From positions 851,002 to 915,001 of the forward strand of contig CAVYIM010000003.1 in NCBI GenBank assembly GCA_963768655.1: DNA of 64,000 nucleotides, in the 5' to 3' direction. A program made the translations under genes and the position numbers. How positions within the stretch are numbered: the stretch's first letter is position 1; every line of letters begins with the position of its first letter. The notes under the pieces are model-generated. The model searched no databases, was not told the DNA's origin, and worked only from the letters and a program-made list of their open reading frames with translations. Positions 6,587 to 34,140 of this stretch are shown piece by piece. This DNA is from an uncultured Chloroflexia bacterium. GTDB taxonomy: Bacteria; Chloroflexota; Limnocylindria; Limnocylindrales; CSP1-4.

Positions 6587-7849
6587 CTACCGCGCCGCGG
6601 CCGCGAACGTCTGATTGGGCCGCTGCGATCCATTCCGGCGCGACCGGGATGGCCCGCCCGCGCGCCCGCCGCCGAACCGCGCCACCGGTGTGGGCTCGCG
6701 GTTGGGATCGGGCAGGTACTCTTCGACGACTGCACACGGGATGGACTTGCGCAGCAGGCGCTGGACGCCCCGCAGTTCGTCCACCTCGTCGGGCGAGACC
6801 AGGGAGATGGCCGTCCCGCTGGCGCCGGCGCGACCGGTTCGGCCGATGCGATGAATGTAGTCCTGCGGCTCGTACGGCAGCTCGAAGTTGACGACGTAGG
6901 GGAGATCCTCGATGTCGAGGCCTCGCGAAGCCACGTCCGTGGCCACGAGGACCTTGACGTAGCGACCCTTGAACGCCTCGAGTGCACGCGTCCGCTCGGC
7001 CTGGCTGCGGTCGCCGTGGATCGCGGAGCAGCTGACGCCGCGCCTGTCCAGGTACGCGGCCAGCCGGCTCGCCCCGATCTTGCTCCGGGTGAAGACCAGC
7101 ACCTGCTCCATCGAGTCGCGCTGGATCAGGTGGATCAGAAGGTCCGCTTTGCGGCTCTGGTCGACCGGGTAGAGGACCTGGGTGAGATTGTCGGCCACGC
7201 TGTTGCGAGGCGCGACTTCGACCGTCTCCGGGTTGGTCTGGAACTCGCCGGCGAGCTTGCGCACGTCATCGGAGAAGGTTGCCGAGAAGAGCAGCGTCTG
7301 GCGCTTCGCCGGTATGTGTCCGACGATCTTGCGGACTTCGGGGATGAAGCCCATGTCGAGCATCCGGTCGGCTTCGTCCAGGACGAGGATCTCGACCTGG
7401 GAGAGGTTCACGGTGCGCTGCCCGACGTGGTCGAGCAGGCGGCCGGGCGTGGCGACGAGGATCTCGACGCCGTGCCAGAGGATCTTGATCTCCGGGTCGA
7501 TGCGCGTGCCGCCGTACACGACCGTGGAGCGGAGCGGAACGCTGCGGCCGTAGGTCTTGACGGCAGTGGCCACCTGAACGGCGAGCTCGCGGGTGGGTGT
7601 CAGGATCAGGACTCGGACCGGATGTCTTGCCGGCGAGAACCCCGTGTTGGAGTGGTGCCGGAGAAGCTCCAGGATCGGCAGGACGAAAGCGGCGGTCTTG
7701 CCGGTGCCGGTCTGCGCGGCGGCGAGAACGTCGCGGCCGGCGAGAATGAGGGGGATTGCGGCGCTCTGGACGGGCGTCGGCTCTGTGTAGCCCTCCCGCT
7801 CCACTGTGGCGAGAAGGTCGGCCGAAAGGCCGAGGTTGTCGAAAGTCAA
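6587..7849 (-). CDS. rhlE: DEAD-box RNA helicase (RhlE-like)
   Basis: Q motif, AQTGTGKT, PTRELA, DEAD, SAT, HRIGRTGR; AGGAG RBS before TTG 7849. Confidence 0.92.
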   Translation of the reverse strand: MTFDNLGLSADLLATVEREGYTEPTPVQSAAIPLILAGRDVLAAAQTGTGKTAAFVLPILELLRHHSNTGFSPARHPVRVLILTPTRELAVQVATAVKTYGRSVPLRSTVVYGGTRIDPEIKILWHGVEILVATPGRLLDHVGQRTVNLSQVEILVLDEADRMLDMGFIPEVRKIVGHIPAKRQTLLFSATFSDDVRKLAGEFQTNPETVEVAPRNSVADNLTQVLYPVDQSRKADLLIHLIQRDSMEQVLVFTRSKIGASRLAAYLDRRGVSCSAIHGDRSQAERTRALEAFKGRYVKVLVATDVASRGLDIEDLPYVVNFELPYEPQDYIHRIGRTGRAGASGTAISLVSPDEVDELRGVQRLLRKSIPCAVVEEYLPDPNREPTPVARFGGGRAGGPSRSRRNGSQRPNQTFAAAAR

Positions 7850-20262: not shown

Positions 20263-21345
20263 CTAGTGTCCCGATTCGCCGGTCGCTAGCGGCTTCCGCA
20301 CTGCCTTGGCCAGAATCTGGTCGGCCGTCTTGACCCAGAGAAAGGGCGTTGCACCCTCGTTCCATTGCGCCGTGAAGCCGTTGATCATCGCGACGAGTTC
20401 CTTGACCGAGCGAAAGCTGCCACGGCGGATGGCCTGACGGCTCAGGATGCCGAACCAGGTCTCGATCTGGTTCATCCAGGACGCGCTGGTCGGGGTGAAA
20501 TGGAAGCTCACCCGCGGATGAGCCTCGAGCCACTTTCCGACGTCTGGCGTCTTGTGTGAGCTGACGTTGTCGAGCACGACTGCGAGGTCTTTCTCGGGAT
20601 AGGCTCGCTCAACCTGCGCCAGGAAGGCCAGGAAGTCGGCGCCGGTGTGGTGGGTGCGGGTCTGCGTGGTGACCTTGCCGGTGGCGACTTCCAGAGCGGC
20701 AAAGAGGTGGGTGGTGCCGTTCCGTTTGTAGTCGTGGGTGTGGCGCTCGACCTGGCCGGGCTTCATGGGCAGCATCGGGGCCGTTCGATCGAGAGCCTGG
20801 ATCTGGGTCTTCTCGTCAACGGACAGCACGATAGCCCGCTCGGGCGGAGCGAGATAGAGCCCCACGACATCGCGGACCTTGGCCACAAGATCGGGATCGG
20901 TACTGAACTTGAACGTCTCGACCCGATGCGGCTTGAGACCAGCCTCGCGCCAGATGCGCTGGATGGTCGTGACACTGATGCCTGTCCGGGCAGCCATCGC
21001 TCGCGAACTCCAGTGGCTGGTCCCGAACGGCGGCGGCTCCAAGGTGAAGGCGATGACCCGGTCCCTAGCGGCCCGGTCGTAGGTTGGCACTCGGCCGGGC
21101 CGAGGCGCATCAGCCAGGCCGGCCATGCGGTCGGCCTCGAAACGAGTACGCCAGTCGCGCACCGTCAAGGGGGTGACCCCGATCTCGGCCGCAATCCGCT
21201 CGTTCGCCGTGCCGGCCGCTGCCGCAAGCACGATCCGGGCCCGCATCGCGAGTCGCTGCTCGGTCGTTCCCGCTCGTATCAGGGCCAGTAGGGATGCTCG
21301 TTCAGACTCGCTGATTACCAACGGCGGAGCTGGATGGTTCGGCAT
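20263..21345 (-). CDS. IS630 family DDE transposase
   Basis: HTH N-terminus, SVDEKTQIQAL, YKRNGT, VLDNVSSHK, SWMNQIETWF. Confidence 0.95.
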   Translation of the reverse strand: MPNHPAPPLVISESERASLLALIRAGTTEQRLAMRARIVLAAAAGTANERIAAEIGVTPLTVRDWRTRFEADRMAGLADAPRPGRVPTYDRAARDRVIAFTLEPPPFGTSHWSSRAMAARTGISVTTIQRIWREAGLKPHRVETFKFSTDPDLVAKVRDVVGLYLAPPERAIVLSVDEKTQIQALDRTAPMLPMKPGQVERHTHDYKRNGTTHLFAALEVATGKVTTQTRTHHTGADFLAFLAQVERAYPEKDLAVVLDNVSSHKTPDVGKWLEAHPRVSFHFTPTSASWMNQIETWFGILSRQAIRRGSFRSVKELVAMINGFTAQWNEGATPFLWVKTADQILAKAVRKPLATGESGH

Positions 21346-21395
21346 AGCCAAATCGTAGCTGCAAACCAGTTACCCTGCAGCGGCTCGGGACACTA
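20264..21395 (-). mobile_element. Complete IS630-family insertion sequence with TA target duplication
   Basis: Ends TA-GTGTCCCGA... and ...TCGGGACAC-TA are inverted repeats; single transposase inside. Confidence 0.9.
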
Positions 21396-22189: not shown

Positions 22190-22741
22190 GTGTCTACGCC
22201 GCTTCTCTCCCGGGCCGTCGAGAGCGTGTGGCAGATCCTTGCGCTCAGCCCCGAGCGACCGTTCTTCCAGCGCGAACTCGCCCGATTGACCGGCGAACCT
22301 TACAACGGCGTCGTCCAGGCGCTGCGCCGGCTGGTCCGCGACGGGCTCGTGACGACCGGCGTGGTCGGCGGCAAGCCGGCGTTCTATGCGAACCGCGAGA
22401 GCCCGTACTTCGACGAGTTCCAACGCATCGCCATCAAGAGCCTGGGCATCCCCAGCGCGCTGGACGCCGGCGGAGTCGTCGCGGTCAAGGTCGCCGTGTT
22501 CGGATCGTTTGCGAAGGGTGTCGCCGGACCGCAGTCGGACCTCGACGTCTTCGTCGTCGGCAGCGAGCCTTCGCCCGGCGCCGCGTCCACAGCCATGGCC
22601 GGGATAAGCCGCAAGTTAGGCCGCCCTGTCAATGTGGTCGTCTATAACCATGCCCGATATCAGCAGGAGCGCGAGGACGCCGCTACCTTCGTGTCGGCCA
22701 TCGTGGGCGCGCCGATCGTGAACCTCCGCGGAACGCTTTGA
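22190..22741 (+). CDS. HTH plus minimal nucleotidyltransferase (MNT) antitoxin-like protein
   Basis: N-terminal RELARLTG HTH; VFGSFAKG...SDLDVFV pol-beta motif. Confidence 0.85.
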   Translation: MSTPLLSRAVESVWQILALSPERPFFQRELARLTGEPYNGVVQALRRLVRDGLVTTGVVGGKPAFYANRESPYFDEFQRIAIKSLGIPSALDAGGVVAVKVAVFGSFAKGVAGPQSDLDVFVVGSEPSPGAASTAMAGISRKLGRPVNVVVYNHARYQQEREDAATFVSAIVGAPIVNLRGTL

Positions 22742-23264
22742 TGCGATCGTTCGTGTCGATTGCGGCGCTGCTCGACCACGACGTTCGGCCGGCGTTCGAA
22801 CCTTCGATAGTCAACCGCAACGAAGCCGGCAGGAAAGCCGGCGAGATGAACAAGCATCTCGCCGAAGCCGAAAGCCTCGCCAGCTTCGGCTTTCGTGAGG
22901 ACGCCCAGACCAGGTACGAAGCGGCGACAATCGCCGCTGCCGACGTGCTCCTGGCGCTGTCGGGTGCCTGTCTCGTCAACAGTCACCGCGGTCGCGCGCA
23001 CGAGGTGAAGAAGCACTTCCTGGTGGCCGCGCTGAATGCCGAGGGAAGCCGGCGCCCTCGCTCGAGCAGGTCCTCGCGATAACGCACATGCGCCATCTCG
23101 TCGAGTACGGCGCCTCGGTAATCGCGGAGCACCTGACGCCGCAGGCTGCTGACGAGGCACGGCCGGTCGCGAGCATCGCGCGCCGGTCAACGCTCGAGAT
23201 TCTCGACGAGGCCGGGATCGTTGTGCCGCAGCTCCCGCTTCAGGAGCCGCACGCGCCCAGATAG
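22738..23264 (+). CDS. HEPN-like protein, frameshift near 23048
   Basis: YEAATIAAADVLLALSG...H motif; the alternative frame continues ...ITHMRHLVEYG (R-x4-Y) to TAG at 23262-23264; overlaps the MNT stop. Confidence 0.65.
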
Positions 23265-23950: not shown

Positions 23951-24786
23951 ATGGGGGAGCTCGCGATCCAGAGCGAAGGCACGACGCCGCTCAGTGAGGC
24001 GGCGCCCGTCGCATCGCGGCGCGACCGGTTCAACGGCTGGTTCGTCACGCACGAGGTGGCGTGGGAGCTGGCCATGGCGGCGCTGGCCGTCGTGTACGTC
24101 GCGCTCGGGTTCGCGGTCGACGACCTCTCGGCGGGCGAGCGTCCGGAGATCGGGGCGGCCGAGTGGGCGCTGACCGGCATCTTCGTCCTCGAATTCGGCA
24201 GTCGAATCCTGGCGGCTCGGAGCCGGACGGCCTACCTGCGCGGCCCTGGATCGACGTCATCGCCCTGGCGCCACCGATCCGAGGCGCGCTGGTGCTTCGC
24301 CTCCTGCGGCTGCTTCGACTGGTTCGGTCGTTCGCCGGCCTCTATCGGGCGGGCCTCCACATCCAGGGCCTGGCTCGACACAAGGGCTTCGCCTGGCTGC
24401 TGACCGCCTGGCTCGGCGTCATGGCCCTCTGCTCGGCCTGGATGCACATCGCCGAGAAGGGCGTCAACAGCGCGATCCAGAACCCCTTCGACGCGCTCTG
24501 GTGTGGCGTCGTCACCCTGACCACCGTCGGTTACGGCGACGTCTACCCCGTCACCACCGAGGGCCGCCTCGTCGCCATGGCGCTGATGCTCCTCGGCATC
24601 GGGCTCTTCGGCGCCATCACCGCCACGATCGCGAGCTACTTGATGAGCAGCGACAGCCACCACGACCCGGACCACTCTCCGGCGGGCGATCTGGAACGGC
24701 TAGCGGCGCTGCACGAGCAAGGGGCGTTGACACAGGACGAGTTCGCAGAGGCTAAGTTGTGGGCGCTCAAGGCGACGGCCCGCTAG
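23951..24786 (+). CDS. Potassium channel (ion transporter) with C-terminal SHOCT, one frameshift near 24245
   Basis: S4-like LRLLRLLRLVR, TLTTVGYGD filter, LERLAALHEQGALTQDEF SHOCT. Confidence 0.85.
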
Positions 24787-25016
24787 AAAGGAGCGAGGCA
24801 GGGAATGGCAATGAGTTGTCTTGGCGACCCCGCGGCGCCGCATTGCCGACTAGGCCAGCGAGACAAACGCCACTTGGCGTCCCGGAGCGTGGTGCCTGAA
24901 GGAAGTAATGCGTCGACTTCGGCGTCTCGCGGAGCTGTCCCGCAGACCCTGAGCGATATCACGGCCACGCACGAGCTAACACACGGCAGTGTCGGACTTA
25001 GTCAGGTGCGATCTCG

Positions 25017-25841
25017 CTAAGGCGTGTTGGCGGAAATGAGCACTTCATTGACGTAGCGACGGTGACTCGAGTCTGCCGCAACCGACGATCGCCGGGTAAT
25101 CATCTCCGTAGCAAATCCTTCGTAGAGCGCCAGGAGCGATGGGTGATTCGCATTTGAGACGAGGACGGAACACCCAGCCTCAGCAAGCCGTCTTGCGACG
25201 CGAGCCAGTCTCTTCTGATCGTCGAACGAGTAGATGCGTTCGTTGTAACGAAGGAACCCATTCTGGTCATGCGCTACTGTATAGGGAGGGTCGAAGTAGA
25301 CGAAATCACCGGCTGACGCAGTTTCAACTGCTACTTCAAAATCACAGGCCATGAGTTGGGTGCTCTGAAGGGCGTCGCTCAGCGCCCACAGATGGCTGCG
25401 ATCACTGAAAGAGTACACCCGGTGGCCGTATGGAGTGTTGAATTGTCCCTGTCGGTTGACTCTGTATATCCCATTGAACGCGAGTGTAGTCAAGTAGATG
25501 AAACGGGCCGCCTTCTCAATGGCGTCGCCAGGGAAGGACTTTCGAACTACATAGTACCCGGCCTCGTCGGTCGGCAAGCGTTCGAGACATTCCTGAAGTG
25601 AAGCCCGGCGGTCTCGGAGTACTGCATAGAAATTCATCAAATCAACGTTGTGATCGGACAGGACAGCGGACCGCGGACAGAGATGAAAGAAGAGGGCCGC
25701 GCCACCGGCAAACGGCTCGAAATACCGGTGGAAGTTCGGCGGCACGTGTCGATCGATTGATGGGATGACGCTACGTTTGCCACCTGGCCACCTGAATGGA
25801 GGGGCGATTGCGAAACCAGATGGCGTGTCTAGTCGAATCAC
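25017..25841 (-). CDS. Dam-family (D12 class) N6-adenine DNA methyltransferase
   Basis: PPFRWPGGKR, YFEPFAGGAA, FNGIYRVN..G.FNTPYG, FVYFDPPY, LVSN; GTG start overlaps upstream TGA (GTGA). Confidence 0.92.
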   Translation of the reverse strand: MIRLDTPSGFAIAPPFRWPGGKRSVIPSIDRHVPPNFHRYFEPFAGGAALFFHLCPRSAVLSDHNVDLMNFYAVLRDRRASLQECLERLPTDEAGYYVVRKSFPGDAIEKAARFIYLTTLAFNGIYRVNRQGQFNTPYGHRVYSFSDRSHLWALSDALQSTQLMACDFEVAVETASAGDFVYFDPPYTVAHDQNGFLRYNERIYSFDDQKRLARVARRLAEAGCSVLVSNANHPSLLALYEGFATEMITRRSSVAADSSHRRYVNEVLISANTP

Positions 25842-27163
25842 AAACCCAGACCCCAGACGGCGACCCGCTCTAGCCCCGCCAGAGAGTGTAGATCGGTTGC
25901 TACATCGTGATTCAGCTGTCTGTATGTTCCCGGGTTCGCGGACGCTCGCCACTTCGACAGGGCGGCCAACGAGGCCTCTGAGTCCGTCCAGAGATCAAGG
26001 GCACTTGCTGGGCGCTCAGCACCTTCGTACAACCCGCGGTCTCTCAGCACAGGCAGCCACCAAAACTCGAACGAAGGTACCGGGATTGGTGACGACCTCC
26101 GGAGCTCCAAGGCGAGTCCCGTTGCTAGCCGGAGCAGGAGCAAAGCGCGCGCGATGACGCCGAAATGCACTGACATGGAGGCGCTGGAGGCGATGGTTAT
26201 AACCGGGAGGTCAGCAGCATCCTGATGACGAAGGAGGAAGTCACGCCATGACGGAATGGCGGGAGGCGGCCCGACGCGAGCAAGTATGGTGTCGACCGTG
26301 TTGATGAAATCTGCCTGGGTTCCTGTCTGGCTGGTTTGATCAAAGGAATCCTTGATAGCGATCCGAAGAAGATGCCGATCTAGCTGGTCGAATGGTGAGT
26401 ACGACGACGGCCTCAGGGCTGTCCATAGGTCAAGCAGGAACGCTGCTGTCGCGTCAGCCGTCGGGGCGGGCGACTCCAAACCGTCAGGCCGGTAGCTTGC
26501 TGCATTGCGGAGGTCGCGATCCGCCGCGTAGCGACGAAGATCGGCACCCCACAGACTGAACCATCGACTTCCGATCCTTCGCCAGGGCCAGCCCCCAAAT
26601 CCGGCCGCCATCCAGTTCGAGAGCGTGATGCCACCTGGCGCGATAATTCGGCCTACGATGTCTCCTGACCGCATTCTTGCCCCCCAATGCTCGAGCGCAA
26701 GCCAGGCCATCTCGTGCGTCCCGCGGGTCTTGGGCGAGATCAGTTTGCTCGCTGCGGCATTGTGTGAGAACACGAAGTGATCTCCGTTCAAAACCGCAAT
26801 TCCCTGCGTGGCAAGAATACAAAGTGCTGCGTGCAATGAGGCGTAGTAAGCGAGATGGACCGAATGGTTTGAATCGCCTCGGCAGGCAGCCTGAATGGAA
26901 GTCCCAAGGTAGCCCCAGCCATCGCCGACGTGACGGAGAGTCGACGCGGCAGCGTACTGGAGAAGAGACCCAGAGTCCACCTGCGGGTTGGCGCCGCGTG
27001 CGTCGTCGTGGATTCTCGCTATGTGCCGGCCCGCATAGCGATTGGATCCTGGAAGCCATCGTCCGCGACGGAGACTCGGCTGGAGCAGGGAGAACGTCGA
27101 TTGGATCGTTTCATCAGAAGCACGCCGGAGCATGCGTTTCTCGTTGCTGTCGAGTGGCTTCAC
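25838..27163 (-). CDS. Uncharacterised 441-aa protein with HEPN-like signature
   Basis: HLAYYASLHAALCILATQG...GTH...DRDLRNAASY resembles HEPN (UPF0332-type) motifs; AGGA RBS. Confidence 0.6.
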   Translation of the reverse strand: MKPLDSNEKRMLRRASDETIQSTFSLLQPSLRRGRWLPGSNRYAGRHIARIHDDARGANPQVDSGSLLQYAAASTLRHVGDGWGYLGTSIQAACRGDSNHSVHLAYYASLHAALCILATQGIAVLNGDHFVFSHNAAASKLISPKTRGTHEMAWLALEHWGARMRSGDIVGRIIAPGGITLSNWMAAGFGGWPWRRIGSRWFSLWGADLRRYAADRDLRNAASYRPDGLESPAPTADATAAFLLDLWTALRPSSYSPFDQLDRHLLRIAIKDSFDQTSQTGTQADFINTVDTILARVGPPPAIPSWRDFLLRHQDAADLPVITIASSASMSVHFGVIARALLLLRLATGLALELRRSSPIPVPSFEFWWLPVLRDRGLYEGAERPASALDLWTDSEASLAALSKWRASANPGTYRQLNHDVATDLHSLAGLERVAVWGLGL

Positions 27164-27178
27164 GCGTTCCTGCCCGTC

Positions 27179-28678
27179 CTATCGGAGGCCCAGCGCTGAA
27201 ACCACCTGTTCCGAAAGCAGCGCTATTTCCTGATCCGGCGAGCTAGTCATGTGCCTCATCACAATTCGACGAAGCAGAGGGTACCCACCATTTCCTCGGT
27301 ACGCCATCCTGAGCTGCTGGTCTTCTTCCGATAGGCCAGGCGCGGCCGAGGACCGCCAGTCGAACGCCGCAAGGTGTGCGGAGACGCGCTCCAGGAACCC
27401 CGCGAAAGGCTGTAGCCTCGCCTCTCGAATTGCGTCCGTTACGTCCTTGGTATCAACTAGATCAGAGGCGCGGTCGAGCTCCCAGCCAAACAGATTGAGA
27501 CGATGGGCGGCTAGGTAGGTGAGATCGTTGTAGACCTGAAGGATCACGCGAACGCCTTGGTCGGAACTGGTGAGGCTGTTGTTCGTGAAGATGGCCCCGG
27601 TTCCACGACCATCGAGCTGCCGAACCCATTCGAGGTTCCGCGACGCTACCGAGCGCGCAAACATCTCCCAGGCTAGGATCAGAAAAGCTGCTTGCTGAGC
27701 GCGAGACCAAGGGAGGGCAAGGCGGTCTGATCCTACCGGCGCTCCGTACAGTCCGCCTACAAGCTTCCCTCTTCCTTCCCAGTTGCGAATGAAGGATGAA
27801 AGCAAGGAACGGATCCACGAAGCCTGTGTCACGCCAGGTTTGGATGGCTCACCAAGCATATTGATTCGGTTCTTCCAGATGCTGGCCGGGTGCGTCCACA
27901 GGATCTCGGTCATCTCCTGTGCTCGAGTTTCGCGATATATGCCAGCCCCTTCGAACCGATCAAGCCAATCCTCCGTCCGGAGGAGCGGGTAGAGGTCGAA
28001 GGCAAGACTCCGGTTGATACGCTTCGGCTTTATGTTGATCGTGTAGAAGAGATACGCCTGCCAACTGATATCGAGCCCTCGGAAAGCGACGACCGGGAGT
28101 TGATAGGTTTCGGGGAGCCCTCGCTCGTCGAATGCCCACAGGCGGTGCTGCCCATCTATGATTTCCAGTGGTGGTACCTCGGCGGGTCTCCAACGGGGGT
28201 CCGCGGATCCGGGCGGGAGTTCGACCTCGGCTGTCCCCCTGTCGTCGTCCGTAACCTTGATGACCTCGGACGGCGCGACTCGCCGACCGCCGCGTTTGTC
28301 GACCGACAGGAGCATGTTGACAACCACCGCGGTCGGGAGCCAACCGGGTTTCTTCAGGTCGTGGAACTCATCGGAGGCTCGGCGGCGCGGTGGAAGGTTG
28401 GACCATGGGAAGCCAAGCTTCACGTAGTCGGCTATCTCACTAGACCGCTCTACATCGTGACGTCGCTGGATCCCAAGAGAGTCGACGCGGGCTCCGTCCG
28501 TGACTTCCCGGCGGTAGACGCCTGTTAACCTGCGTATCAGGCCAACCTCGAGTGACAGGAGATAGAACTCAGGGGCCGGCTTCCTCCGGTGATCACGCTC
28601 GGCAAAGTCGACGTCATTCCATCCCCGCAGCCATTGACGCACTCGCAGCGCGGGAACCTTGACTGGCTCGGGCGGCAT
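27179..28678 (-). CDS. DGQHR domain protein (DndB/ParB-Srx superfamily)
   Basis: GIQR, LPTAVVVN, IIDGQHRL and FYTINIKPK motifs, plus a C-terminal extension of about 270 aa. Confidence 0.9.
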   Translation of the reverse strand: MPPEPVKVPALRVRQWLRGWNDVDFAERDHRRKPAPEFYLLSLEVGLIRRLTGVYRREVTDGARVDSLGIQRRHDVERSSEIADYVKLGFPWSNLPPRRRASDEFHDLKKPGWLPTAVVVNMLLSVDKRGGRRVAPSEVIKVTDDDRGTAEVELPPGSADPRWRPAEVPPLEIIDGQHRLWAFDERGLPETYQLPVVAFRGLDISWQAYLFYTINIKPKRINRSLAFDLYPLLRTEDWLDRFEGAGIYRETRAQEMTEILWTHPASIWKNRINMLGEPSKPGVTQASWIRSLLSSFIRNWEGRGKLVGGLYGAPVGSDRLALPWSRAQQAAFLILAWEMFARSVASRNLEWVRQLDGRGTGAIFTNNSLTSSDQGVRVILQVYNDLTYLAAHRLNLFGWELDRASDLVDTKDVTDAIREARLQPFAGFLERVSAHLAAFDWRSSAAPGLSEEDQQLRMAYRGNGGYPLLRRIVMRHMTSSPDQEIALLSEQVVSALGLR

Positions 28679-28796
28679 GTCCCCCAACTCCTGACGTGCT
28701 GGTACGAGCGGCTCGCTCCTCGGAGATCATACGTCGGCCAAGACACTCGGAACCAGCGTAGGCCTCACGTCATACGAACTCGGAGCCAGTGTTCTG

Positions 28797-33185
<4,389 letters not shown>

Positions 33186-33249
33186 CTCGTGCACCTCTAC
33201 CTGGTTCTCTGTCTCGCGGTCGGGACGCTGGTTCATCGGTGGGCCTGGG

Positions 33250-33314
33250 GTTGTTGCGTGGCGTTGTTGCGTGGCGTGGTTGCGTGGCGTTGTTGCGTGG
33301 CGTTGTTGCGCGGC
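33250..33314. repeat. Tandem repeat, 5 x 13 bp (GTTGTTGCGTGGC)
   Basis: Directly visible, two copies with one mismatch. Confidence 0.85.
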
Positions 33315-33648
33315 GGCGGCGGGGTGGCGCTGTGGCGGCCGGGCGGCGGCAGGGTGGCGAGGCCAGGCGGGCCCTCTGGCCCGACTGGGCGGTGCCGTGG
33401 CTGCGTGGCTATCCCGTGGCTGCGCGACCGGTTCGCGGACCTTGCGCGGGCGGCGAGCGCTGGGGGTTCTCCTACCCGGTGCGAGCCCGTGCGAAGGTCT
33501 GGATCGGTTCGTCCATCGTCGCCCGCGATAGCCTGCGAGGGCTCCTGGCCGGATCCGATCGTGGTCCTTCCTTCGCCAATTCGACCGTCCTTCCTTCGGC
33601 CTGCTTGCGGCGGCCAGTGGGCCTTCGCGGAGCCCATCGACCGCCGGG

Positions 33649-33678
33649 AATGTACGCCTGCGCCGCACCCCCAGTCAA
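33649..33678 (-). promoter_or_regulatory. Sigma70-type promoter for nrdJ (TTGACT-N18-TACATT)
   Basis: Near-consensus -35/-10 immediately downstream of the NrdR boxes. Confidence 0.55.
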
Positions 33679-33918: not shown

Positions 33919-33944
33919 CTGCGAATGTCCAGCGGGCCGCGAGG

Positions 33945-34140
33945 GCGTGGCGGCACGGGCGGGGTGTGGCCGCGCGGGGTGGCGGGGCGCGGGGCAGAGG
34001 GCGGGGGCGTGGCCGCGGCGGTGTGGCCGCGCGGGGAGTGGCCGCGCGGGGGGTGTGGCCGCGCGGGGGGTGTGGCCGCGCGGGGGGGTCTGGCCGCGCG
34101 GGGGGGTGTGGCCGCGCGGGGGGCGTGGCCGCGCGCGGGG
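33945..34140. repeat. G-rich tandem repeat, about 9-11 copies of GTGGCCGCGCGGGG(GGGT)
   Basis: Directly visible, period about 17 bp. Confidence 0.85.

Follow-up and report, generated by a model that had tools for sequence, protein, structure and literature searches.

What are three genes of foreign composition doing directly behind the stop codon of nrdJ, and do they belong together as one system? The question is raised by positions 25,017 to 28,678 of a 64,000-nucleotide stretch of contig CAVYIM010000003.1 (assembly GCA_963768655.1), the whole of which is called the window here. A first-pass annotation of this DNA had proposed the three genes, encoding a DGQHR protein (gene 1), a protein with suspected HEPN features (gene 2) and a Dam-class methyltransferase (gene 3), as a candidate new defence system. 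Here, we found that genes 1 and 2 are strictly coupled across many phyla and that an adenine-type DNA methyltransferase is encoded beside nearly every such pair. The reading that we favour, with confidence a little better than even, is that the trio constitutes a horizontally acquired, methylation-linked, restriction-modification (R-M)-like defence cassette. The three genes and the segment that contains them are located as follows.

27179..28678, minus strand: gene 1, 499 aa from an ATG start, with a ribosome-binding site (AGGAG) ahead of the start
25838..27163, minus strand: gene 2, 441 aa from a GTG start
25017..25841, minus strand: gene 3, 274 aa from a GTG start that overlaps the gene 2 stop codon as GTGA
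24790..28796, no strand assigned: low-GC inserted segment between the K+ channel gene (end at 24786) and the nrdJ stop codon (28797)

The open reading frames (ORFs) confirm the layout that had been described for this locus, namely three co-oriented genes on the minus strand after the nrdJ stop codon, with a gap of 15 bp between genes 1 and 2 and the GTGA overlap between genes 2 and 3. The nrdJ stop codon occupies 28797-28799, 118 bp upstream of gene 1. In the source record gene 2 is 431 aa long and starts with ATG at 27133; the 441-aa form is favoured here because homologues align farther upstream than the 431-aa start. Residue numbers of the 431-aa form (P0001) are converted to those of the 441-aa ORF by adding 10. 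Every motif quoted in the first-pass annotation, including the full DGQHR set of gene 1, is present; read from the sequence, the trio carries GIQR, PTAVVVN, IIDGQHR, FYTINIKPK, HLAYYASLHAALCIL, GTH, RNAASY and DPPY.

The coupling of genes 1 and 2 is strict. The expectation that the trio is conserved as a unit in other genomes was borne out, as gene 1 adjoins gene 2 in 52 of the 52 assessable loci, which come from many phyla. All 16 species-representative genomes, from Acidobacteriota, Chloroflexota, Actinomycetota, Pseudomonadota, Bacteroidota and Ignavibacteria, carry gene 1 immediately upstream of gene 2, and the same order is seen in three of three further Actinomycetota genomes. The metagenome set comprises 35 contigs, 4 of which start inside gene 2 and 3 of which duplicate others; gene 1 lies upstream of gene 2 in all 31 contigs that reach the upstream side. 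The pair is also present on the one plasmid recovered (1/1), from Rhizobium tumorigenes, where it lies beside Tn7-like genes and where the RefSeq labels read 'DGQHR domain-containing protein / hypothetical protein / DNA adenine methylase'.

Of the pairs, 48 have an adenine-type methyltransferase next to them; 2 have none, and 6 contigs break off before this can be judged. By source, an adjacent DNA methyltransferase was found in 15 of the 16 genomes (4 short D12, 10 long D12 of 336-408 aa and 1 N6_N4), on the plasmid, in 28 of the 35 metagenome contigs (26 by tblastn and 2 MT-A70 by Pfam) and in 3/3 Actinomycetota genomes (one long D12 downstream and two N6_N4 upstream). Six metagenome contigs end at gene 2. 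One of the MT-A70 assignments, in contig L028, is ambiguous and adjoins a BglII-like gene. The enzyme is encoded upstream or downstream of the pair, depending on the locus, and four families occur beside it, namely short D12, long D12, N6_N4 and MT-A70. No C5 methylase was seen beside any gene 1-gene 2 pair, with many partners assigned by similarity to Pfam-scanned ones. Long D12 is the commonest partner and the short Dam-type enzyme of the window is a minority form. The Dam class proposed in the first-pass annotation thus holds for gene 3 itself and does not extend to all other loci. A gene 1 tree labelled by methyltransferase type is star-like; the short D12 label changes four times, and well-supported branches force one of these changes. 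Because this tree is too star-like for exchanges to be counted, the claim is limited to the occurrence of the four families.

Which kind of protein does each gene encode? For gene 1, the scores against curated models fall below the cut-offs, with 50.9 bits for TIGR03187 DGQHR (just under the cut-off of 58.85), 18.7 bits (E 1e-3) for PF14072 DndB (cut-off 29.1) and 54.2 bits for TIGR04172 (cut-off 450). DGQHR_dnd_1 is matched at 1.2e-14 in the motif region only. The sole PADLOC match is DpdB at E 0.044, with the homologue L013 reaching down to 6e-9. Identity of gene 1 across loci is about 36-52%, and ~48% in most. In the AlphaFold (AF2) model of gene 1, with a predicted local distance difference test score (pLDDT) of 77, residues 35-224 are matched structurally by PadC (ParB-like, Z 8.1), pNOB8 ParB-N (6.2), sulfiredoxin (5.5) and KorB (5.5). 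Foldseek placed SspE at the top with a weak score, returning nothing from the PDB at E ≤ 1e-3, and a hidden Markov model (HMM) of the family alignment found nothing among PDB sequences.

Residues Q71, R72, D175-R179, F211 and N215 of gene 1 are invariant in 17 aligned sequences. According to excerpts of PMC12065111, the nucleotide-binding centre of DUF262 proteins is built from the QR, DGQHR and FxxxN motifs, and the role of the DGxQR motif is known from the same source.

28142..28156, minus strand: DGQHR motif of gene 1 (D175-R179), predicted nucleotide-binding centre, invariant in the 17-sequence alignment

Combined, the motifs and the predicted structure place gene 1 in the DGQHR/ParB-Srx group, with a modelled ParB/Srx fold and intact QR, DGQHR and FxxxN motifs. 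Residues 247-499 form helices without a clear counterpart among known structures; this C-terminal region may be equivalent to the DNA-binding domain ('ParBDB') that has been described in DndB, SspE, GmrSD and NsnA. Neither the Pfam scan nor structural alignment revealed a recognisable nuclease domain in gene 1 beyond the ParB fold.

Gene 2 has no Pfam, NCBIfam or PADLOC match, and Pfam stayed blank at E ≤ 10 for 17 family members. A word-indexed homologue search gave just 17 members, whereas an exhaustive HMM search of 1.84 billion representatives gave 1234 at E ≤ 1e-3, of which 918 reached E ≤ 1e-30. The family forms ~1,200 clusters at 50% identity in at least six phyla, and the best 150 of the 1234 relatives are 397-476 aa long. 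Against PDB sequences, the family HMM returned only chance prion rows. The ESM Atlas offered one family row, YaaC (0.81), which was rejected as it lies under the trust level and has no Pfam support, and otherwise only 'hypothetical protein' clusters.

The AF2 model of gene 2 (pLDDT 88.8; predicted template modelling score 0.92) is almost wholly helical and shows an up-down bundle of four helices, the second and third of which are separated by an insert. In exhaustive structural alignment with VIA-align, the best match was AF0298 (PDB ID: 2hsb) with Z 9.8, a root-mean-square deviation of 2.7 and 126 of 126 residues aligned. It is followed by 1ufb (8.5), 4nqf (8.3), 1wol (7.6) and the sacsin HEPN domain (7.5), and lower down by an AMPylated HEPN toxin (6.7), AbiV (6.5) and Csm6 (6.3). 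HEPN-superfamily structures, assigned by title or by the lists in excerpts of PMC3710099, make up 16 of the 25 top rows. The HEPN call for gene 2 is made because this list of matches is consistent, no single score being decisive, and the HEPN-like fold suspected in the first-pass annotation agrees with it.

The conserved residues of gene 2 add to this picture. Two motifs stand out.

26492..26509, minus strand: R-N-A-A-S-Y motif of gene 2, R219-Y224 in the 441-aa ORF (R209-Y214 in P0001)
26714..26719, minus strand: invariant Thr-His of gene 2, T149-H150 in the ORF (T139-H140 in P0001), located in the stretch inserted between helices 2 and 3 of the predicted HEPN core

Across an alignment of 162 members of the family, conservation is 99-100% for R, N, S and Y of RNxxSY and 100% for the Thr-His. 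In the 431-aa numbering, the most conserved polar residues of this set are H68, D71, H93, Y96, Y97, T139-H140, D198, D205, R209-N210-x-x-S213-Y214-R-P, D252, R329 and R335. HEPN domains carry an Rx4-6H motif at the end of helix 3, with a polar residue after the Arg (PMC3710099, excerpts). RNAASY closes the predicted helix 199-214 on its C-terminal side, and both this position and the polar residue after the Arg fit the HEPN pattern, while a Tyr stands at the place of the catalytic His. The annotation of RNAASY as the HEPN signature was therefore mistaken, the signature being Rx4-6H. According to the same excerpts, the HEPN families of AF0298 (2hsb) and AbiV have no motif His and use a conserved His in the helix-2/3 insert instead. 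By analogy, the insert His of gene 2 is a candidate alternative catalytic His, the equivalence at the residue level being inferred. Because the Tyr replaces the His of Rx4-6H, the domain is non-canonical, and on the predicted structure we read gene 2 as a divergent HEPN protein with two large inserts and a C-terminal extension.

Gene 3 is the most readily classified of the three. It matches TIGR00571 dam with 2.4e-66 and 224.1 bits (cut-off 114.85), PF02086 with 7.6e-45 and 154 bits (cut-off 22) and PADLOC MTase_II with 7.5e-71, and among solved structures it is nearest to DpnM (2dpm, 1.9e-50), with E. coli Dam next (1e-27).

25281..25292, minus strand: DPPY catalytic motif of gene 3, in frame with the GTG at 25841

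By homology, gene 3 is assigned as a Dam/DpnM-family (D12-class) N6-adenine DNA methyltransferase, and its site is probably GATC, as for DpnM and Dam.

How did the trio come to lie behind nrdJ? The composition of the cassette is foreign. The 500-bp GC is 0.54-0.62 across 24750-28750, compared with 0.65-0.73 in the flanks. The lower GC and the preference for A/T-ending codons noted in the first-pass annotation are reflected in the GC content at third codon positions (GC3), which is 0.676 in gene 1, 0.649 in gene 2 and 0.604 in gene 3, against 0.884 in nrdJ, 0.802 in the K+ channel gene, 0.796 in the IS630 transposase gene and 0.842 in the MNT gene. GC3 spans 0.60-0.68 in the cassette, compared with 0.79-0.88 for five genes around it. 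A search of the locus for flanking direct repeats, sigma-70-like promoters and useful terminators found none, and Rfam gave no family at threshold anywhere in the window.

The distribution of gene 2 is patchy. Searches for it came up empty in 24 genomes of the same genus and in 16 of the same order, and gave matches in 3 of 400 other Actinomycetota genomes; 50,697 phage records yielded no match and 72,556 plasmids a single one. Five congeners share homology with the window only as far as the nrdJ end. For G015, G001 and G016, three of these five, it resumes at the K+ channel gene on the same contig, after 3.7-6.5 kb of unrelated DNA. In G015 the DNA in between encodes a DUF262 protein (PADLOC NsnA 1e-83), a weak HEPN_RiboL-PSP match, a helix-turn-helix (HTH) gene and an HSDR_N_2 protein. 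An HSDR_N_2 protein is also encoded there in G016, together with an Eco57I-type methylase, and G001 has unknown proteins only. The nrdJ-proximal site thus behaves as a variable hotspot for defence-type cargo. At other loci the trio adjoins integrases, transposases, Tn7-like genes and BglII-like genes, and further neighbours are type III Res-like genes, GmrSD-HNH, ArdC and PIN. The cassette is horizontally acquired.

Several observations were made on the surroundings of these loci. ParB-family and HEPN pairs occur near the 3' end of nrdJ in different Actinobacteria, namely in the window, in G015 (L024), in G150 (L071) and in the metagenome contig L038. In G015 and G150 the pairs are DUF262 plus HEPN and co-directional with nrdJ; in L038 the gene 1-gene 2 pair and an MT-A70 methylase adjoin an nrdJ with 63% identity to that of the window. 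In an Actinomycetota metagenome-assembled genome (MAG; L006:6950-9247, plus strand), the trio is directly followed by a gene for a 765-aa fusion of DndB and HEPN_Swt1 (DndB 1.7e-12, PADLOC DpdB 6e-19, HEPN_Swt1 weak), so that a fused ParB-HEPN protein stands beside a split one. A Candidatus Angelobacter MAG (L001) has another, weak DGQHR-like match at 6636-7166, downstream of the trio, with 27% identity to gene 1 (E 1e-8), and a DUF4365 protein is encoded upstream.

In the window itself, nrdJ (28797-33668, minus strand) is a class II ribonucleotide reductase gene with an intein and a LAGLIDADG homing-endonuclease domain; its Pfam matches are Intein_splicing, LAGLIDADG_3, Ribonuc_red_lgC and TSCPD. 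Two GC-rich tandem repeats lie upstream of it, at 33246-33315 and 33943-34140, with 5.4 copies of 13 nt and ~11 copies of 17 nt. On the other side of the cassette, at 22190-23082 (plus strand), a nucleotidyltransferase gene (NTP_transf_2, 183 aa) overlaps the next ORF, which has 114 aa and no family match, a layout that resembles an MNT-HEPN toxin-antitoxin pair. An IS630-type transposase gene (DDE_3 and HTH domains; 20263-21351, minus strand) lies 3.7 kb from the cassette.

How might the three proteins work together? In the defence cassette that we favour, gene 3 would methylate host adenines and so mark self DNA. Gene 1, as a DndB-like ParB-fold nucleoside triphosphate (NTP)-binding protein, would bind DNA and nucleotide and read the methylation state, a role modelled on the ParB-DUF262 domains of SspE, GmrSD and BrxU. 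Gene 2 would be the effector, licensed by gene 1 on unmethylated (foreign) DNA, and would most likely be a metal-independent nuclease with the Arg-Asn...Tyr motif and the invariant insert His. That four methyltransferase families occur beside a gene 1 that keeps ~36-52% identity across loci suggests that the pair needs the N6-methyladenine (m6A) mark and not one particular enzyme. What the analysis shows is the anatomy of the genes, their folds, the strict coupling of genes 1 and 2 with a nearly constant adenine methyltransferase beside them, the foreign composition and the patchy distribution; the defence function, the sensor and executor roles, the substrate (RNA or DNA) and the GATC specificity are what we infer for this cassette. 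Complex predictions for genes 1 and 2 scored 0.01, 0.51 and 0.23 and were not used as evidence either way.

A number of observations weigh against this reading. As most HEPN domains are RNases, abortive infection would be a better fit than classical restriction. The best Z of 9.8 for gene 2 lies in the range (below about 13) in which helical bundles can match by arrangement alone, and Foldseek found nothing in the PDB at E ≤ 1e-3. Nor did any described HEPN family match by sequence or by profile; in hhalign the MAE_28990 family, the sole HEPN profile compared, reached a probability of 0.14%. The Rx4-6H motif is absent where helix 3 ends, and in helix 2 the window copy departs from its own family at two positions, E99 being replaced by S (E in 94% of members) and R101 by H (R in 99%). 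Among proteins of 875-2495 aa no fusion of genes 1 and 2 was found, which is weak evidence. At locus L002 no DNA methyltransferase lies nearby, and at L043 none is present in the 2 kb visible downstream. Finally, DndB and DpdB, which among named proteins are nearest to gene 1, act on the modification side of their systems and not in restriction (PMC10853773 and PMC12839542, excerpts of both).

The explanation that survives best besides the one we favour, though we consider it unlikely, is that of a minimal R-M system with an abortive-infection backup. In this view, gene 1 would itself serve as restriction DNase (a 'ParB nuclease'), restrained by the methylation that gene 3 provides, and gene 2 would be a PrrC-like HEPN RNase that is silent in the complex and released once a phage neutralises restriction. 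Such a backup was proposed by Anantharaman et al. 2013 for HEPN domains inside R-M operons, the order ParB - HEPN - methylase is common to both cases, and ParB/Srx proteins with DNA-nicking activity are cited in the portions of PMC12839542 consulted. However, in the better-studied proteins SspE and GmrSD the ParB-like domain serves as an NTPase sensor, and cutting falls to a different domain (PMC12065111, excerpts); the scans of gene 1 described above revealed no recognisable nuclease domain beyond the ParB fold.

The variety of methyltransferase partners allows a bolder interpretation. Four unrelated adenine-methylase families occur beside a gene 1 that keeps ~48% identity across phyla. The pair might then sense m6A generically, not at a sequence-specific site, and the methyltransferase partner would be exchangeable, a proposal that we regard as doubtful. 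A DndB-like nucleotide-binding clamp would sense adenine methylation on DNA, or on methylated nucleotides from degraded DNA, and license a HEPN enzyme whose active site would combine Arg...Tyr with the insert His. If true, this would amount to a new logic of self/non-self discrimination and a new, unprecedented catalytic variant of HEPN.

A module that only modifies, with no restriction or toxicity, appears improbable. In this scenario, gene 1 would be an ATP-dependent regulator or helper of the methyltransferase, like DndB or DpdB, and gene 2 an accessory DNA- or RNA-binding protein. The sole named relatives of gene 1, the modification-side DndB, DGQHR_dnd_1 and DpdB, agree with such a role, but the methyltransferase family varies while genes 1 and 2 stay coupled, which would be unusual for the dedicated helper of one enzyme. 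The HEPN-like fold and the invariant polar residues of gene 2 suggest an enzyme, and the cassette is mobile, rare and found in defence-type hotspots.

A selfish addiction cassette, in which genes 1 and 2 kill cells that lose methylation and thereby stabilise a mobile element without meaningful phage protection, is very improbable. The patchy distribution, the foreign composition, the nearby transposases, integrases and Tn7-like genes and the like behaviour of classical type II R-M systems speak for it. It is compatible with defence, as R-M systems do both, and the counts (0/50,697 phage records, 1/72,556 plasmids) mark the trio as not typical plasmid-stabilising cargo.

Should the R-M-like cassette prove protective, it would be a widespread addition to the methylation-based defences, combining a DndB-like ParB-fold protein, a HEPN-fold effector and an interchangeable adenine methylase. 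DndB-like ParB-fold proteins belong, as far as is known, to the modification side of dnd and dpd, and the trio would provide a three-gene model for how ParB-fold NTPases read DNA modification. It also bears on whether HEPN domains without the canonical His remain enzymes. In any case, the gene 2 family, for which no database model exists, gains a first structural and contextual annotation.

How does the trio compare with known systems? PADLOC-DB v2.0.0 (2023) contains no system model that covers genes 1 and 2, and the same holds for three further pairs of the family. In the full-text literature the trio was not found described, a provisional result as subscription journals are thinly covered. 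MADS, considered as a candidate, was dropped, as it is a multi-gene system. An island of M. abscessus with a 'DGQHR hypothetical + DpnIIA methylase' is mentioned in excerpts of PMC9248903; it may be the same cassette. The general architecture has already been predicted by comparative genomics, as Table 1 of Anantharaman et al. 2013 lists operons of a ParB-family protein, HEPN and a DNA methylase (PMC3710099, excerpts; computational only), there with another HEPN family and a DUF262-type ParB. The statement that the trio is not a named system therefore stands with respect to the 2023 models for genes 1 and 2, and falls short with respect to the architecture as such.

The operons of HEPN(MAE_28990/RiboL-PSP) with DUF262 resemble the trio in gene order, with the ParB-family gene first, then the HEPN-fold gene and sometimes a methylase. 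In four DUF262 + HEPN_MAE_28990 loci examined, DUF262 is immediately upstream of the HEPN gene in 4/4 and a methylase follows in 1/4; one of these comparison loci (L071) lies directly after nrdJ. The proteins differ. The GmrSD_N/DUF262 protein of these operons has ~365 aa and matches PADLOC NsnA at 1e-54 to 1e-83, whereas gene 1 has 499 aa, belongs to the DGQHR type and matches neither. Their HEPN protein has 209-250 aa and a canonical RNxxxH, whereas gene 2 has 441 aa and RNxxSY. The sole methylase among them is of the C5 type, in contrast to the adenine type beside nearly every gene 1-gene 2 pair.

DndB and DpdB have in common with gene 1 the DGQHR motif family, the ParB fold with a C-terminal helical region and a DNA-modifying partner. 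Gene 1 differs in its scores under the curated cut-offs and in its partners, an adenine methyltransferase and an obligatory HEPN-like neighbour. The earlier remark that dnd genes are missing agrees with the lack of a match to TIGR03183 (DndC) in the genome of the window (88.6% complete), DndD/E and ssp not having been searched genome-wide; no dnd genes were seen beside the pair in the 16 genome loci scanned. With DpnII/MboI-type R-M systems of the Dam family the trio shares gene 3, whose closest relative is DpnM, while genes 1 and 2 match no restriction endonuclease model in PADLOC or Pfam. AF0298 (2hsb) and AbiV resemble gene 2 in keeping the motif Arg, losing the His and carrying a conserved His in the helix-2/3 insert (PMC3710099, excerpts), but have no sequence or profile match to gene 2, which is three times longer and has a second large insert and a C-terminal extension.

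In validated defence systems, ParB-DUF262 proteins are modification sensors (PMC12065111, excerpts), as in SspE, GmrSD/BrxU, PD-T4-2 and Menshen (excerpts of PMC12065111 and PMC9519451). No PADLOC ParB-DUF262 model matches gene 1 at E ≤ 0.1, and gene 1 and three homologues have no NsnA or PD-T4-2_A match. These systems, unlike the trio, attack modified DNA or work without a methylase, and their effectors are of the HNH/DUF1524, BECR or PIN type, fused or connected via an ABC ATPase. Like the trio, SspE, GmrSD/BrxU, PD-T4-2 and Menshen (NsnA) have a ParB/Srx NTP-binding domain followed by a helical domain and coupled to a nuclease effector, in the trio a proposed one (PMC12065111, excerpts). 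The ParB-DUF262 systems offer the best functional analogy for the trio.

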